The notes below the pieces were generated by a model. It worked only from the letters and a program-made list of their open reading frames with translations. It had not been told where the DNA came from and made no database searches. A stretch of 64,000 nt of DNA from Haliangium sp. (lineage in GTDB: Bacteria > Myxococcota_A > Polyangia > Haliangiales > Haliangiaceae). Of the stretch, positions 46,555 to 50,708 are shown one piece after another (position 1 is the first letter of the stretch; each line of letters starts with the position of its first letter). A program made the translations under genes and the position numbers. The stretch covers positions 64,001 to 128,000 of the forward strand of contig NZ_JBNLBH010000019.1 in the NCBI RefSeq assembly GCF_050303215.1. Reading direction: 5' to 3'.

Positions 46555-49500
46555 TACTGTCCGTCTGTACCGAAGTCGCTCGGCTCGCACATCAGCAACC
46601 CACGGTTGGTGATGCGCGGGGTGACGAAGACCAACACCTCGGTGCGCTCGTCGTTCTCGCGCCGGTTCTTGAAGAACCAGCCCAGCAGCGGCAGGTCACC
46701 GAAGAGCGGCACCTTGGCGTACGACAGGCCGGCGTTGCGGGTGTAGATGCCGCCGATGACCGTGGTCTCCTGATCGTTGACCAGCACGGTCGTCTTGGCC
46801 TCCTTGCGCAAGATAGTGGGATCACCACGAGCGCCGGTGTTGACGAAGTCGGCCTCGTTCTTCTCCACCTCGATGTCCATCGAGATCGAGCAGTCGCGCT
46901 GGGACACGTGGGGCGTCACCCGCAGGCTGAGGTCGGCGTTGACGAACTGGGTCTGCACGCCCTGGGCGGAGATCACCGAGATGGGGATGGACACACCCTG
47001 GCTGATCTCGGCCTGGATGTTGTTGACCACCGTGATCTTGGGCGCGGACACGATCCGCACCGAGCCGTTGTTCTCGAGCGCCGACAGGCGCAGGTTGAGG
47101 TTCACGCCCCCGCGCAGCGAGCCCAGGGCCAACCCGATCGCGCCGCCCGCGCCCGAGCCGACTGCGGCCGGCAGGTTGACGGCGAAGTCCGGCGAGGCCG
47201 CGTTCACGCCCGAGGTCACGGTCTGGTTGTCGACCGCGCCGCCGGCGGCGGAGACGTCGTTGGGGAAGATGAGGCCGGTGTTGGCGCTCTGGAAGCTGCC
47301 GCCCCACTGCACGCCGAACTCGCGCACGAAGGTGGAGCGGGCCTCGACGATGCGGGCCTCGATCTGGATCTGTGGGGTCTGGGTGTCGAGCCGGCGCAAC
47401 AGGTCGATGATGATGCGCCGCTTGTCGCGCACGTCGCTGATGATGAGCGTGTTGGTGCGGCTGTCGATCTGGATGGACCCCTTCTGCGACAGCAGACCCT
47501 CGACCTGCCCCTTGACGTCTCCGGCCACCGCGTAGTTGAGGGTGAAGATCTCGGCCTCGGCCGCCTCGGCCTCGCGCAGGGCCCGGCGCCGCGCCAGTTC
47601 GGCCTCGGCCTCGGCCTCGAGCTGCTTGCGGGTGGCGATTCGGTACAGGTTGCCCTCGCTCTGGTACCACAGCCCCTTCGAGGCCAGGATGACCTCGAGC
47701 GCCTGATCCCAGGGCACCTGGCGCAGGCGCACCGTGACCCGGGCCTGCACGTCGTCGGGCACGACGATGTTGATGCCGCCGACGTCGGCCAAGAACCGCA
47801 TCACGTTGTGGATGTCCACGTCCTTGAAGTCGAGGTCCACCTTGGTCCCGCGGTAGACCTTGCGCCGCTGGCGCGCGACCTGGGCCACGGTCTTCTGGGT
47901 GATCGGGGTCGAGGACGCGCCGTAGCCGCCGACCACGGGCGCCGGGATGCTATGCGTCCGAGTCCGGCCCGCGCGGGTGCCACGACCCGCCGCAGCCGCC
48001 CGCACCGCCCGCGCGCGCTGCCCCGACTTGGCGAAGTCCCAGTAATAGGTGTTGCCGCTGCGCTTGAGCGTGTGTCGGGTGGGATAGGCCAGATCGACCG
48101 CCAGTCGCATCTTGGATCCGTCCTCGGGGTCGCGGTACGACGACACCGCCCGGATCGGGCCGCGATAGGCCGAGGTGTCGAGCGTGCGTTGCAGCGTGCC
48201 GGGCAGATCGGCGTCCGCGATCTCGAGGATCACGCGGGTCTTCTCGTTGGCGACGATGCGCGGGCGGGCCTCGCTCGACAGCGCGAGCAACACTCGCGCG
48301 AAGCCGTCGCGATCCACGAAGTCCACGTCGCGCACGCGCACCGACTGCGCGGCCGGCTTGGCGGCCGGCCGGCCCGCCTCGAGCGCCTCGCGGCGCTTGC
48401 TCAGCTCGGCCAGCCGGGCCTCCTCCGCGGCCAGGGCCTGACGCGCGCGCCGGGTCGCCTGATCGAGCTCGGTCAGCTCGGCCTCGGCCTTGGCCTTGGC
48501 TACTTGCGCTGCCTTGTGCTCGGCAGTCGCGCTCCGGTTGGCCTGGGTGCGGGCCGCGGCCAGCTCGGCTTGCAGGGCCTCGCGGCGCTTGCTCAGCTCG
48601 GCCACCTTGGCCTCCTCCTCAGCCCGAGCTCGGCGCGCCTGCTGGGCCGCCTGGTCCAGGCTGGCGAGCTCGTTCTCGGCCTTCTCGACTCCACTGCGCG
48701 CCGCGCGCTCGGCCTCGGTCGCAGCCTCGACCCGGGCCCGCAGATCGCTGATCTCGCCCTCGAGCGCGGCCCGACTCTGGCTCAGCTCGGCCACCTTGGC
48801 TTCCTCCCGGACACGCGTCCGGCGAGCCTGGGCAACCGCGGCGTCGAGGACCTCTCGGCGCTTGCCGAGCTCGACGATGCGCGCCTCCTCGCGGCTCCGG
48901 GCCGCCTGGGCGCGGCTCTCGGCGTCGGCCAGCGCGCGCCGCTCGGCCTCGGCCTCGTCCTGGTGGGCCTTGCGCTCGGCCTGGGCCGCGACCCGGGCCT
49001 TGCGCTGAGCCGCGGACAGCTCGGCCTCGACCGCCTCACGCTGCCGAACCAGCTCGGCGAGCTTGGCCTCCTCGGCCTGACGAGCGCGGCGCGCCTTCGA
49101 GCGCGCCTGGTCCAGCGCCGCCAGCTCGGCCTTGCGCTCGGCCGCCTGGCGAGATTGATCGTGGATCGCCGTAATGCTGCGCTCGAGCTGCTTGCGGCGC
49201 TCGCTCAGCTCGGTCAGGCGTGACTCTTCGCGCAGGCGCCGCGTGCGGGCCTCGTCGGCCGCGGCGCCGAGCTTGCGCAACTCGGCCTCGGCTTCGCTGC
49301 GCTGGGCTTTCCAAGCGTCGCGGGCCGTACGCACGGCGTTCCGGGCCTGGGCCAACTCGGCCTCCAGGGCGGTGCGACGACGGGCCAGCTCGGCCACCTT
49401 CTTCTCCTCGGCCTCGCGGGCCTGGCGAGCCTGGGCTGCCGCCGCTTCGAGGCCGCGGAGCTCACGCTCGGCCTTGCGACCGGCCTCGGCCAGTTGGTCG

Positions 49501-50708
49501 GCGGTGTGCTGCTGAGCCTGGACCTCGCGCCGGCGCTCCGACAGCGCGGCCTCGGCCTCGGCCCGGGCCTGAGCCAGGCGGCGGGCCTCGCTGCGGGCCC
49601 GCGCCAGCTCGCGCTCGGTCGCGTCCTTGCTGGCCCGGGTCTTGGCCAGACGACTCTCGGCCTCGGCCGCGGCCCGACCCATATCGGTCGCCTTGGCCTT
49701 GGCCGCAGCGGCCTCGGCCTCCAGGGAGCGCAGGCGCTCGCCGGCCTGGCGCAGCGCCGCACCCCGACGCTGAGCCTCGGTGCGGGCCTGGGCCGCCTCG
49801 CGGAAGGCCTTTTCTTCTTTCTCGCGCAGCGCTCGCGCCTGTGCGGCCCGGCGCTCGGCCTCGGCCCGCGCCTGCGCGACTTCGCGATAGGCCGCCTCTT
49901 CCTTCACTCGCAGCGCCCGCGCCTCGTTGGCCCGGCGCTCGGCCTCGCCGGCCTCGGCCTCGGCCTGGCGGCGCGCCGCCTGCGCCTTGGTCAGTTCGGC
50001 CGCGAGCTGCTCACGCTCGGCCTGCACCCGCTTACGCTCGGCGTCGATCGCGGCCTTGCGTTGCTCGGCCGCGGCGATCTCCTTCATCACCTCCTGGTGG
50101 CGAGCCTTGGCCTGGGTGACCGCCCGCGCCGCTGCAGCAGCCGCTGCGGGGTCAGCCTGGGCCGGCGCCGGCTGCTCGGGCGTGATCGTGATGACCACGT
50201 CCTTGCCGTCGGCCTCGGCCCGGTAGCTACCCGGACGCGCCATCCCGACCACCACTCGCACCAGGCTCTGCTCATCGCCCTGGGTCGACCCATCCGCGCC
50301 CACGCCGTGCAGCTCGTAGATCGAAATCTGCCCCACCGACCAGCCGTTGGCCGACCAGGTCGCCTTGTGCTCATCGTCGCCCGTGAGCTTGCGGTCGAGC
50401 ACCGCACCCGCGATGTCGACCACCACTCGAGACGGGTAGTCCAGCTTGTACACCGTGAACGTCGGCTCGCGGGTCCCGCGCACTCGGACTTGCATGGTCC
50501 CGGCCACGCCGGCGGGCGCGGCCCCATGGTCGACCGCCACGATGCGACTGGCACGGTGACGCTCGGCGTGCGCGGACAGCGACCAGGTCCCCAGCAACAG
50601 CGCCGCCGCGGCCATGCTCGTCGCCGCGCCCCAGCGTCGAGGCCGCCGACCCAGTCGGGGCAGCCGCGGGGAAAGGTTGTCGTGCTTCATGTTCGAAAAA
50701 CGGTTCAT
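46554..50708 (-). CDS. pilQ: Type IV pilus secretin PilQ with a ~650-aa Ala/Glu/Arg-rich coiled-coil repeat insertion between two AMIN domains
   Basis: The product is 1384 aa. It has a signal peptide and AMIN-1 (RVVVDIAGAVL...). About 650 aa of repeats of the form EEAKVAELSKRREALEAELAAAR follow, then AMIN-2 (VRDVDFVDRDGFARVLL...), the N0/N1 domains and a C-terminal secretin domain (GGIYTRNAGLSYAKVPLFGDLPLLGWFFKNRRENDERTEVLVFVTPRI). Large antisense ORFs are rejected. Confidence 0.9.
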   Translation of the reverse strand: MNRFSNMKHDNLSPRLPRLGRRPRRWGAATSMAAAALLLGTWSLSAHAERHRASRIVAVDHGAAPAGVAGTMQVRVRGTREPTFTVYKLDYPSRVVVDIAGAVLDRKLTGDDEHKATWSANGWSVGQISIYELHGVGADGSTQGDEQSLVRVVVGMARPGSYRAEADGKDVVITITPEQPAPAQADPAAAAAAARAVTQAKARHQEVMKEIAAAEQRKAAIDAERKRVQAEREQLAAELTKAQAARRQAEAEAGEAERRANEARALRVKEEAAYREVAQARAEAERRAAQARALREKEEKAFREAAQARTEAQRRGAALRQAGERLRSLEAEAAAAKAKATDMGRAAAEAESRLAKTRASKDATERELARARSEARRLAQARAEAEAALSERRREVQAQQHTADQLAEAGRKAERELRGLEAAAAQARQAREAEEKKVAELARRRTALEAELAQARNAVRTARDAWKAQRSEAEAELRKLGAAADEARTRRLREESRLTELSERRKQLERSITAIHDQSRQAAERKAELAALDQARSKARRARQAEEAKLAELVRQREAVEAELSAAQRKARVAAQAERKAHQDEAEAERRALADAESRAQAARSREEARIVELGKRREVLDAAVAQARRTRVREEAKVAELSQSRAALEGEISDLRARVEAATEAERAARSGVEKAENELASLDQAAQQARRARAEEEAKVAELSKRREALQAELAAARTQANRSATAEHKAAQVAKAKAEAELTELDQATRRARQALAAEEARLAELSKRREALEAGRPAAKPAAQSVRVRDVDFVDRDGFARVLLALSSEARPRIVANEKTRVILEIADADLPGTLQRTLDTSAYRGPIRAVSSYRDPEDGSKMRLAVDLAYPTRHTLKRSGNTYYWDFAKSGQRARAVRAAAAGRGTRAGRTRTHSIPAPVVGGYGASSTPITQKTVAQVARQRRKVYRGTKVDLDFKDVDIHNVMRFLADVGGINIVVPDDVQARVTVRLRQVPWDQALEVILASKGLWYQSEGNLYRIATRKQLEAEAEAELARRRALREAEAAEAEIFTLNYAVAGDVKGQVEGLLSQKGSIQIDSRTNTLIISDVRDKRRIIIDLLRRLDTQTPQIQIEARIVEARSTFVREFGVQWGGSFQSANTGLIFPNDVSAAGGAVDNQTVTSGVNAASPDFAVNLPAAVGSGAGGAIGLALGSLRGGVNLNLRLSALENNGSVRIVSAPKITVVNNIQAEISQGVSIPISVISAQGVQTQFVNADLSLRVTPHVSQRDCSISMDIEVEKNEADFVNTGARGDPTILRKEAKTTVLVNDQETTVIGGIYTRNAGLSYAKVPLFGDLPLLGWFFKNRRENDERTEVLVFVTPRITNRGLLMCEPSDFGTDGQ

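Follow-up and report, generated by a model that had tools for sequence, protein, structure and literature searches.

The locus analysed here raises the question of what a long Ala/Glu/Arg-rich repeat region is doing between two AMIN domains of a pilus secretin. Members of the type IVa pilus (T4aP) PilQ family form heat- and SDS-stable 12-15-mer outer membrane (OM) pores that are needed for piliation. An earlier note, made from the sequence of the window (a 64,000-nucleotide stretch of a Haliangium sp. contig), had described such a region as a coiled coil, and we examined its reality, its origin and the role that it could play.

The pilQ gene, its locus and domain order

The 1384-aa protein is the only T4aP secretin PilQ of a Haliangium-like myxobacterium and is orthologous by position. 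As the earlier note had held, it is encoded by one continuous gene; the product scores 398 bits against TIGR02515 (cut-off 284) and is 100% identical to the NCBI entry 'type IV pilus secretin PilQ [Haliangium sp.]'. pilQ is the final gene in pilMNOPQ by ORF and Pfam analysis, and its ATG overlaps the pilP stop by 4 nt. The gene order matches that of Anaeromyxobacter, and the synteny sigma54 activator-pilMNOPQ-aroKB...accBC-TPR is common to both loci. In a survey of 67 Myxococcota genomes, one pilQ copy was counted as a core gene (PMC13190605). GC3 in the pilQ frame is 0.88-0.91. The + strand opposite pilQ carries ORFs of 771, 478 and 299 aa; the earlier description of large antisense ORFs here as spurious was correct, and they are common high-GC artefacts.

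From the N to the C terminus, PilQ comprises a signal peptide, AMIN1, the coiled-coil segment, AMIN2, N0, N1 and the secretin domain (Table 1). AMIN1 scores 19.7 bits in Pfam, slightly under the cut-off of 20.5. In PilQs of the Anaeromyxobacter type, BLASTP matched it to the first AMIN (E 5e-9 and 7e-8), and AF2 modelled it as a confident beta-sandwich (pLDDT 78-91). The N-terminal AMIN domain that serves as a criterion for T4aP PilQ is thus present. AMIN2 is colinear with the third AMIN of A. dehalogenans PilQ, and further Pfam matches include PF03958 (42 bits) and PF07660 (30 bits). BLASTP and AF2 for AMIN1, together with Pfam for AMIN2, bear out the claimed position of the segment between two AMIN domains. 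Its claimed extent needed correction: the Ala/Glu/Arg-rich segment spans ~593 aa, not ~650, and the lower coordinate of 48190 given in the note extends into AMIN2, the segment covering 48369..50147.

Table 1. Features of the pilQ locus, in window coordinates
Feature	Residues	Coordinates	Strand	Basis or remark
pilM, pilN, pilO, pilP block		50705..53823	(-)	directly upstream of pilQ, same strand
pilM		52777-53823	(-)	Pfam PilM_2
pilN		52120-52758	(-)	Pfam PilN
pilO		51432-52118	(-)	Pfam PilO
pilP		50705-51418/51577	(-)	Pfam PilP
pilQ, whole gene, type IVa pilus secretin	1384 aa	46554..50708	(-)	ORF + TIGR02515 398 bits
Signal peptide region (...AAAALLLGTWSLSAHA/ER)	aa 1-48	50565..50708	(-)	putative, read off translation
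AMIN1, divergent AMIN beta-sandwich	aa 54-177	50178..50549	(-)	BLASTP + AF2
Coiled-coil segment, 593 aa	aa 188-780	48369..50147	(-)	composition, heptad Viterbi, AF2
28-aa (4-heptad) tandem duplication	aa 255-310	49779..49946	(-)	TRF (49763-49947; 84-nt period, 2.2 copies, 78% matches) + protein windows (score 106)
Seven copies of 52-64-aa repeat	aa 416-781	48366..49463	(-)	consensus EL..LD.A...AR.AR..EE.K.AEL..RR.ALEAEL
28-aa segment	aa 593-620	48849..48932	(-)	missing from 10/10 close orthologs (alignment)
AMIN2	aa 790-893	48030..48341	(-)	Pfam AMIN 45 bits; AF2 pLDDT >90
Disordered Gly/Arg/Ala/Thr-rich linker	aa 894-952	47853..48029	(-)	AF2 pLDDT <50
N0/STN + N1/Secretin_N	aa 953-1024 + aa 1053-1113	47370..47852	(-)	Pfam STN, GspD N0, Secretin_N
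Secretin domain	aa 1210-1367	46608..47081	(-)	Pfam PF00263, 149 bits

The coiled coil, its repeats and its distribution

Residues 188-780 form a genuine heptad coiled coil: the core is Ala/Leu, position a often holds a conserved Arg, and e and g carry Glu/Arg. The segment is rich in Ala, Glu, Arg, Lys, Gln and Leu (A 29%, R 17%, E 16%) and has zero Pro. Its heptad Viterbi score was 188, compared with 98±8 for shuffles, and it resolved into 8 register segments where shuffled sequences gave ~22; the longest single-register run covered 210 aa (aa 261-470). The z score for heptad coherence was ~11 in Haliangium PilQ, with a median of 6.4 among 216 relatives. In the Viterbi register, 88% of L/I/V/M/F residues sit on a/d, and 38 d positions are Ala. 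Conservation among orthologs was 0.74 at a/d versus 0.35 at b/c/f (p 4e-24), with identities of 0.65 at a, 0.84 at d, 0.60 at e, 0.53 at g, 0.36 at b, 0.38 at c and 0.31 at f; Ala at d was conserved at 85%, compared with ~48% at b/c/f, and Arg at a at 76%. AF2 placed helix along the entire segment. The claim of a coiled coil is confirmed by this heptad phase and a/d conservation and by the phase-keeping indels described below.

A single alpha-helix (ER/K SAH) domain was rejected on the basis of an E+R+K content of 38%, 29% Ala and a clear conserved a/d seam, the sole SAH-like trait being an enrichment of i->i+4 salt bridges (z 5.6). TolA identity, which calls for an N-terminal TM anchor and a C-terminal TolA domain III, was rejected, as Pfam and NCBIfam yielded no TolA family match, the coiled coil alone giving none at E<=10 either. 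SMC identity, defined by an ABC-type head and hinge domains, was also rejected, the match to the SMC arm being weak and compositional (30 bits against a cut-off of 567). A search for PDB homologues of the coiled coil returned no match at E<=0.01.

The coiled coil lengthens and shortens by heptad-multiple units. Ortholog indels within register runs measured 7, 7, 21, 28 and 28 aa, odd lengths being confined to register breaks, and autocorrelation peaks were multiples of 7 in 102/113 proteins. The best 30-aa window pairs scored 85-106, compared with 56±4 (maximum 68) in shuffles. Repeats quoted in the earlier note were found at aa 434-456 (EEKKVAELARRRTALEAELAQAR), at aa 762-779 (EEARLAELSKRREALEAG) and, with one residue differing from the quotation, at aa 698-720 (EEAKVAELSKRREALQAELAAAR). 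Close orthologs P0002-P0011 carry 5-7 copies of the 52-64-aa repeat at orthologous positions, while their alignment points to aa 593-620 as a lineage-specific 4-heptad gain. The expectation of correspondingly repetitive DNA holds weakly: identity among the copies is 60-78%, and no exact DNA repeat is longer than 28 nt. Since the copies are so diverged (<=78%), frequent recombination among them is not expected; the proposed variation in repeat number is real, in steps of 7, 21 and 28 aa, on an evolutionary time scale.

The probability that the segment is an artefact is negligible. The earlier note had named two ways in which its reading could fail, namely repeats collapsed or expanded in assembly and a frameshift linking pilQ with a separate coiled-coil gene. 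Both are excluded by the uninterrupted ORF (in-frame GC3 0.88, codon usage the same as in the remainder of pilQ), by the 28-nt longest repeat, and by independent assemblies with the same architecture, including the complete H. ochraceum genome (P0010).

The AMIN1-coiled coil-AMIN2 layout is the standard plan across a large Polyangia-side Myxococcota lineage. Two samples of relatives contained 216 complete examples, with Haliangium, Haliangiales, Kofleriaceae, Nannocystaceae and Polyangia among the named taxa, and most near relatives, including Haliangium ochraceum, have it. The layout is therefore no peculiarity of one genome. Anaeromyxobacter PilQ has three AMIN domains and no coiled coil. 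The secretin part of carriers is 41-73% identical. Coiled-coil length ranges from 43 to 1507 aa (family median 498-616 aa), and this breadth indicates that no particular length is required. An NJ tree gave 11 state changes; several lineages had lost or shrunk the coiled coil, which is thus not essential to secretin function. At the coiled-coil site, the close relatives P0136 and P0138 have a short helix and Pro/Ala/Thr-rich disordered linkers. From AMIN3 to the C terminus, Haliangium and A. dehalogenans PilQ are 44% identical. On sequence comparison, the coiled coil replaces the middle AMIN and flexible linkers (~180 aa) of an ancestral three-AMIN plan and is not the pure insertion described earlier.

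Pairing, geometry and proposed role

The coiled coil probably forms a parallel, in-register homo-oligomer between neighbouring protomers of the 12-15-mer ring, an arrangement favoured by uncompensated indels, the lack of a conserved turn and g-e' complementarity. Among orthologs, the 28-aa indel at aa 225 varies without regard to the one at aa 593, so that the two do not compensate for each other, and no Gly or Pro turn is conserved within the coiled coil. Family-wide, 4029 g->e'(i+5) pairs were attractive and 1488 repulsive, with 92% of proteins exceeding their own shuffle mean; in Haliangium PilQ alone the bias is weak (z 1.3). It is unlikely that each protomer instead doubles its coiled coil back into a hairpin or a bundle of three helices. 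Such an intramolecular antiparallel arm of 30-45 nm, which may be likened to the stalks of EnvC, RipA, SMC and dynein, could extend outwards from the AMIN ring to bind a partner, for example TsaP, a PG enzyme or proteins of the alignment complex. The AF2 monomer model does fold back antiparallel, splitting the helix in three (158, 203 and 200 aa), and the Ala-rich core, with its 38 d-position Ala, fits tight antiparallel packing. However, the model has a pTM of 0.28 and a helix pLDDT of 45-80, and its breaks at aa 345-356 and 560-569 miss register breaks, indel hot spots and conserved Gly/Pro. Further, the independently varying indels would unbalance paired arms, and the 43-1507-aa range is hard to reconcile with a single fold.

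A periplasmic stalk, spacer or ruler had been suggested in the earlier note. In a perpendicular form that fixes the OM-PG or OM-IM distance at the pilus machine, as in Braun's lipoprotein (Lpp) and SlpA/OmpM, it is compatible with an N-to-C order like that of SlpA (PG-binding domain, coiled coil, OM barrel) and with the ~30 nm that three folded helices of ~200 aa would give. This role is very unlikely because coiled-coil length varies widely and exceeds any periplasm, and because PilN/O/P do not scale with it. A straight 593-aa helix measures ~88 nm, the family median is 498-616 aa, and a 43-1507-aa range is incompatible with a ruler. At coiled-coil lengths of 0, 323, 428, 593, 648 and 917 aa, PilN measures 193, 185, 222, 212, 232 and 224 aa, PilO 209, 205, 267, 228, 214 and 209 aa, and PilP 177, 190, 296, ~237, 192 and 198 aa, respectively. 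These lengths argue that the coiled coil is not an IM-OM spacer: PilN/O/P must bridge the same gap, yet their size does not follow that of the coiled coil. Moreover, the coiled coil precedes AMIN2 in the chain and does not separate the PG-binding module from the OM barrel. We consider it quite unlikely that the coiled coil is mainly an assembly or clustering device, pre-oligomerising PilQ before OM insertion or linking machines into a polar array, and not a mechanical anchor. Conserved interface positions and g-e' charge complementarity do imply chain-chain pairing, and in M. xanthus AMIN-dependent recruitment comes before multimerisation (PMC10653833); however, secretins without a coiled coil assemble well, and the disordered linkers of close relatives would not oligomerise. 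Runaway lengthening of a low-complexity helical linker, neutral in function, would account for the large length variation, the repeated losses and the growth via unit duplication. It is nonetheless highly improbable, given that positions a, d, e and g are each under strong purifying selection, that indels keep heptad phase, and that the coiled coil is retained in hundreds of lineages with secretin parts 41-73% identical.

Our best explanation, a tentative one, is that the coiled coil that replaced the middle AMIN acts as a long tether or outrigger between two peptidoglycan anchors. Helices of adjacent protomers would pair in parallel and in register, and the arms would lie more or less parallel to the wall instead of spanning it; this orientation is the most likely because an ~88-nm rod is several times the width of the periplasm and has PG-binding modules at both ends. 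If AMIN1 binds PG, as assumed here, the arms would hold this distal anchor far away from the AMIN2/secretin body. Such outriggers would widen and multiply attachment of the machine to polar or septal peptidoglycan, and could assist in carrying retraction load and in capturing the machine at the pole or positioning it there. The tether reading is supported by the disordered linkers at the same site in P0136 and P0138, by the PG-binding and polar-targeting function established for AMIN domains in PilQ (PMC10653833), and by SlpA/OmpM connectors, in which a PG-binder, a coiled coil and an OM barrel follow one another in the same way (PMC9388160). Weighing against this explanation are the weak g-e' bias of Haliangium PilQ alone, the loss or shrinkage of the coiled coil in several lineages and the breadth of its length distribution. 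It is conceivable, if unlikely, that the 12-15 paired arms of each secretin form a radial PG-pinned scaffold with a radius of up to ~90 nm, a periplasmic 'spoked wheel'. If true, this scaffold would steady the pilus machine under retraction forces, set machine spacing and number at the pole, and amount to a cytoskeleton-like element of the periplasm, of a type not seen before, within a secretin.

Significance and comparison with known systems

PilQ AMIN domains are thought to decide the site of the T4a pilus machine and its fixation to the wall. In a predatory, gliding, social Myxococcota lineage, a conserved coiled coil that would typically measure 50-100 nm if straight keeps two such anchors apart, and we know of no T4P model that accounts for AMIN anchors separated in this way. 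Arms lying along the wall would offer a testable case of a trans-envelope machine enlarging its peptidoglycan footprint; arms paired between protomers would add a symmetry-breaking element to a 12-15-fold ring. For cryo-ET and genetics, the family provides naturally occurring lengths from 43 to 1507 aa as well as H. ochraceum DSM 14365, a carrier that is in culture and completely sequenced. For annotation, Pfam misses AMIN1, and the coiled coil draws spurious SMC-type matches.

Among canonical AMIN-containing T4aP PilQs, those of M. xanthus and Anaeromyxobacter have three AMIN domains and those of P. aeruginosa and Neisseria two. Haliangium PilQ shares with them the signal peptide, AMIN, N0/STN, N1/Secretin_N and secretin domains and a position at the end of pilMNOPQ, followed by aroK/aroB. 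It differs in having a 593-aa coiled coil in place of the middle AMIN and linkers, and an AMIN1 below the Pfam cut-off; the coiled coil is absent from studied PilQs and, as the earlier note had stated, is not part of the canonical plan. The PilQs of Thermus and Deinococcus have extra N-domain rings and an enlarged periplasmic part, but there the enlargement is by stacked globular rings along the channel axis, whereas in Haliangium it is by a coiled coil between AMINs. Tropomyosin and streptococcal M-protein are likewise long rods with Ala-rich, partly charged cores, stutters or stammers, and heptad-multiple quasi-repeats. Unlike these proteins, with which it has no sequence homology (no PDB match at E<=0.01), the Haliangium rod is periplasmic and embedded in a secretin.

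In a literature search, the sole earlier mention was one line in a 2008 AMIN paper (de Souza et al. 2008, PMC2572700), which lists as architecture viii a delta-proteobacterial fusion of AMIN with a charged, alpha-helical region resembling TolA; the layout is otherwise unstudied. Architecture viii is probably the same kind of AMIN and charged-helix fusion from the same broad taxon, listed there without a link to PilQ or an analysis of heptads, distribution or function. In layout, Haliangium PilQ may be compared with SlpA/OmpM connectors (Deinococcus SlpA, PMC9388160, in which D. radiodurans PilQ is also mentioned) and with Lpp. In each, a long coiled coil, parallel in the connectors and probably so in Haliangium PilQ, follows an N-terminal end attached to PG (putatively so for AMIN1), leads to a C-terminal part embedded in the OM, and serves as a structural element of the periplasm. 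The resemblance is confined to layout; membership of SlpA/OmpM was rejected, with no SLH or porin Pfam match. SlpA/OmpM combine SLH with a porin barrel, whereas Haliangium PilQ combines AMIN with a secretin. The SlpA coiled coil is ~28 nm long, trimeric and perpendicular (PMC9388160), compared with ~88 nm and variable length in Haliangium PilQ, which, unlike SlpA, has a second PG-binding domain between the coiled coil and the OM part.

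Identity and neighbourhood of the window PilQ

The window protein was identical to the NCBI entry 'type IV pilus secretin PilQ [Haliangium sp.]' and scored 398 bits against TIGR02515. Directly upstream on the same strand lie pilM, pilN, pilO and pilP, as assigned by Pfam, with a 4-nt overlap between the pilQ ATG and the pilP stop codon; downstream follow a fused aroK-aroB, aroQ, accB, accC and the gene of a large TPR protein. The first AMIN region (AMIN1), scanned alone, reached 19.7 bits, less than 1 bit short of the Pfam AMIN threshold of 20.5. In Anaeromyxobacter-type PilQs its matches were to the first AMIN (E 5e-9 and 7e-8), and in profile comparison it aligned weakly but colinearly with AMIN2, the second AMIN of the window protein. 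On all testable criteria, the window protein is a bona fide PilQ.

Features of PilQ and its neighbourhood
Feature	Window position	Strand	PilQ residues	Remarks
TPR protein	38942-41809	-		955 aa
aroK-aroB (shikimate kinase-dehydroquinate synthase)	44872-46590	-		572-aa ORF adjoining pilQ
pilQ	46554..50708	-		single unbroken ORF, 1384 aa
AMIN1			54-177	
Coiled-coil segment	48369-50147	-	188-780	593 aa; composition
28-aa tandem duplication	49763-49947		255-310	84-nt tandem repeat
52-64-aa unit			416-781	seven copies
28-aa segment	48849-48932	-	593-620	exactly 4 heptads; ortholog alignment
AMIN2			794-882	Pfam
STN/N0			959-1024	Pfam
Short charged helix, N0 to N1	47553-47630	-	1027-1052	RKQLEAEAEAELARRRALREAEAAEA
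Secretin_N			1053-1113	Pfam
Secretin			1210-1367	Pfam
pilP	50705-51577	-		mechanical ORF from GTG 51577
Sigma54-dependent activator	53954-55672	-		upstream of pilM
ORF	55832-57319	+		495 aa
Kinase-NTPase protein	57687-60812	+		1041 aa

Within aroK-aroB, an ATG at 46554 shares one base with the stop codon of pilQ, an arrangement suggestive of translational coupling. At one compared locus (L004), pilQ (2233 aa) was detached from pilMNOP, yet the pilQ-aroKB linkage was kept. The mechanical pilP ORF overlaps pilO by 146 nt; an alternative ATG at 51418, 13 nt past the pilO stop, is probably the true start and yields a protein of ~237 aa that begins MKATIH and carries a lipoprotein-like signal (...LVLSVGC). 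The sigma54-dependent activator had no Pfam match to Response_reg at E<=1e-4, whereas its counterparts at loci L005 and L006 have one; its N-terminal region (VLVVEGDGE...) resembles a degenerate receiver without the usual acidic pocket. The TPR protein downstream of accBC is present in both lineages (878 aa in A. dehalogenans, L006 11682-12649) and is a case of conserved synteny around the pil cluster. On the forward strand, the 1041-aa protein has both a Ser/Thr protein kinase domain and an nSTAND1 NTPase domain, and the 495-aa ORF showed good coding statistics (GC3 0.92) and no Pfam family at E<=1e-4. The short charged helix between N0 and N1 aligns with a comparable linker of the A. dehalogenans protein, and is thus ordinary in this PilQ group and outside the insertion.

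A heptad coiled coil between the AMIN domains

The segment between AMIN1 and AMIN2 is rich in Ala (29%), Arg (17%) and Glu (16%); it lacks proline and has just 11 glycines. An earlier note on this DNA had described a coiled coil of ~650 residues here; the segment is present, although at 593 aa it is somewhat shorter. Register-tracking Viterbi analysis scored it at 188 in 8 register segments, compared with 98±8 and ~22 segments for shuffled sequences, and the longest unbroken register run spanned 210 residues (aa 261-470, ~31 nm). L, I, V, M and F fell on a/d in 88% of cases; the core consists of Ala and Leu plus 18 Arg at position a, while e and g are mainly Glu and Arg. Among 11 orthologs, identity was 0.65 at a and 0.84 at d, as opposed to 0.36, 0.38 and 0.31 at b, c and f (p 4e-24), with e and g intermediate; Ala was conserved at 85% at d versus ~48% on the surface, and Arg at a at 76%. 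Ortholog indels within register runs measured 7, 7, 21, 28 and 28 aa, and indels of other lengths fell at register breaks (aa 517-525 and aa 729-745) and at the C-terminal end at 778. The segment is a genuine heptad coiled coil; heptad coherence, a/d conservation and heptad-multiple indels bear out what the note had claimed.

The conserved hydrophobic seam rules out a single-alpha-helix (ER/K) domain; intrahelical i->i+4 salt bridges were enriched in the segment (z 5.6). Searched alone, the coiled coil had no Pfam match at E<=10 and none in a PDB sequence search. Its NCBIfam SMC matches were compositional, and a relation to SMC was rejected.

Internal repeats were scored by a vectorised BLOSUM window scan against shuffled sequence. 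The best 30-aa window pairs scored 85-106, far over the shuffled 56±4 (max 68), so the repeats proposed in the note are real; self-BLASTP of the coiled coil returned the identity match only. A repeat HMM built from the window protein found copies in the Haliangium group only, 5-7 at orthologous positions; the family as a whole thus does not share this specific 60-aa motif. Residues 593-620 were found in the window protein alone and were missing from all 10 close orthologs; the alignment suggests that this lineage gained a single short repeat copy. The DNA had been called correspondingly repetitive. Copies do occur, but they share just 60-78% identity, and no exact repeat is longer than 28 nt. 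GC3 of the segment in the pilQ frame was 0.88, with the same codon usage as the remaining gene. Long ORFs of 771, 478 and 299 aa cross the segment on the opposite strand and were rightly regarded as spurious, being a usual high-GC by-product.

Distribution and replacement of the middle AMIN

All of the best 120 homologs carried a comparable segment of 320-1419 aa starting straight after AMIN1. They included Haliangium ochraceum (1255 aa; 9.45-Mb contig), Haliangiales, Kofleriaceae, Nannocystaceae and unclassified Polyangia and Myxococcota. Since this search was biased by coiled-coil words, it was repeated with the C-terminal 604 aa alone against 1.84 billion cluster representatives. Among the best 150 (41-73% identity), the order AMIN1-coiled coil-AMIN2 recurred in most, with spans of 43-1507 aa (median 498, IQR 363-644). 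Across 216 complete members the median heptad coherence z was 6.4, and 102 of 113 proteins had autocorrelation peaks at multiples of 7, mostly at 21 or 28 aa and at 63 aa in the Haliangium group; the family-wide signal is thus a 21/28-aa period, unlike the 60-aa motif of the Haliangium group. A single scan of genome contigs yielded three MAG loci, with Sorangium and other Polyangiales outside the sample. An assembly artefact was rejected on the same architecture in homologs including H. ochraceum and on the 28-nt limit of exact repetition. The feature is real, robust and widespread within its lineage.

Two close relatives, P0138 (861 aa) and P0136 (825 aa), had a short helix and acidic or Pro/Ala/Thr-rich disordered repeats, e.g. 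TTVKAAPTTVKATPTTVKATPT, replacing the long coiled coil; AMIN2 was apparently missing from P0138 altogether.

The nearest relatives without the coiled coil were PilQs of 865-1005 aa with three AMIN domains, named Anaeromyxobacter. Window PilQ aa 791-1369 were colinear with A. dehalogenans PilQ aa 308-871, from the third AMIN to the end (44% identity), and AMIN1 matched its first AMIN. Because both flanks match, the coiled coil sits where the Myxococcia-type protein has its middle AMIN and the two adjoining linkers. Shared gene order around the two genes makes the window pilQ a positional ortholog rather than a paralog; a single pilQ is a core gene across 67 Myxococcota in a 2026 survey (PMC13190605). 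In a neighbour-joining tree of the secretin part, a short or absent coiled coil (21 of 230 taxa) required 11 state changes versus ~20 for shuffled states, so the state is phylogenetically clustered: one 9-taxon clade lacked the coiled coil, along with several scattered cases.

Geometry of the rod and comparison with known systems

A straight helix of 593 residues would measure ~88 nm, exceeding any plausible width of the periplasm severalfold. The note had suggested a ruler. PilN, PilO and PilP, which must link the inner membrane with the secretin, did not lengthen with the coiled coil across six loci. A perpendicular ruler is disfavoured by this lack of scaling and by the very wide spread of coiled-coil lengths.

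Protein lengths (aa) at six pil loci
Coiled-coil span	PilN	PilO	PilP
0	193	209	177
323	185	205	190
428	222	267	296
593 (window)	212	228	~237
648	232	214	192
917	224	209	198

AMIN domains are peptidoglycan-binding, pole-targeting elements of PilQ (PMC10653833). As AMIN modules stand at both ends of the rod, the simplest geometry would be an arm running roughly along the wall, which would tether a putative distal peptidoglycan anchor, AMIN1, far from AMIN2 and the secretin body and so may serve in anchoring or positioning. The rods would pair parallel and in register between neighbouring protomers. An intramolecular hairpin would be supported by compensating indels or a conserved Gly or Pro turn, and neither was found among the orthologs; 28-aa indels in separate parts of the rod varied independently. 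Attractive g->e'(i+5) pairs outnumbered repulsive ones family-wide (4029 versus 1488), and 92% of proteins exceeded the mean of their own shuffles; in the window protein alone, the signal was weak (z 1.3). The independent indels, the missing turn and the g->e' bias favour parallel in-register pairing over the hairpin.

The coiled coil is outside every characterised PilQ, in agreement with the note's view of it as non-canonical. It is unmentioned in a 2018 survey of myxobacterial type IV pilus genes and in a 2023 M. xanthus AMIN study (PMC10653833), and full-text searches of the literature on PilQ, secretin, AMIN and coiled coil yielded no description; the sole precedent found was a single line in the AMIN paper of 2008 (PMC2572700). 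The feature is visible in databases but uncharacterised, and its function is one that we infer. Natural length variants and one cultured carrier open a concrete structural question. In function, the nearest analogues are SlpA/OmpM connectors and Lpp, with their peptidoglycan-attached end, parallel coiled coil and outer membrane part (PMC9388160). The window PilQ fails the domain tests that define those connectors, and its geometry must differ from theirs.
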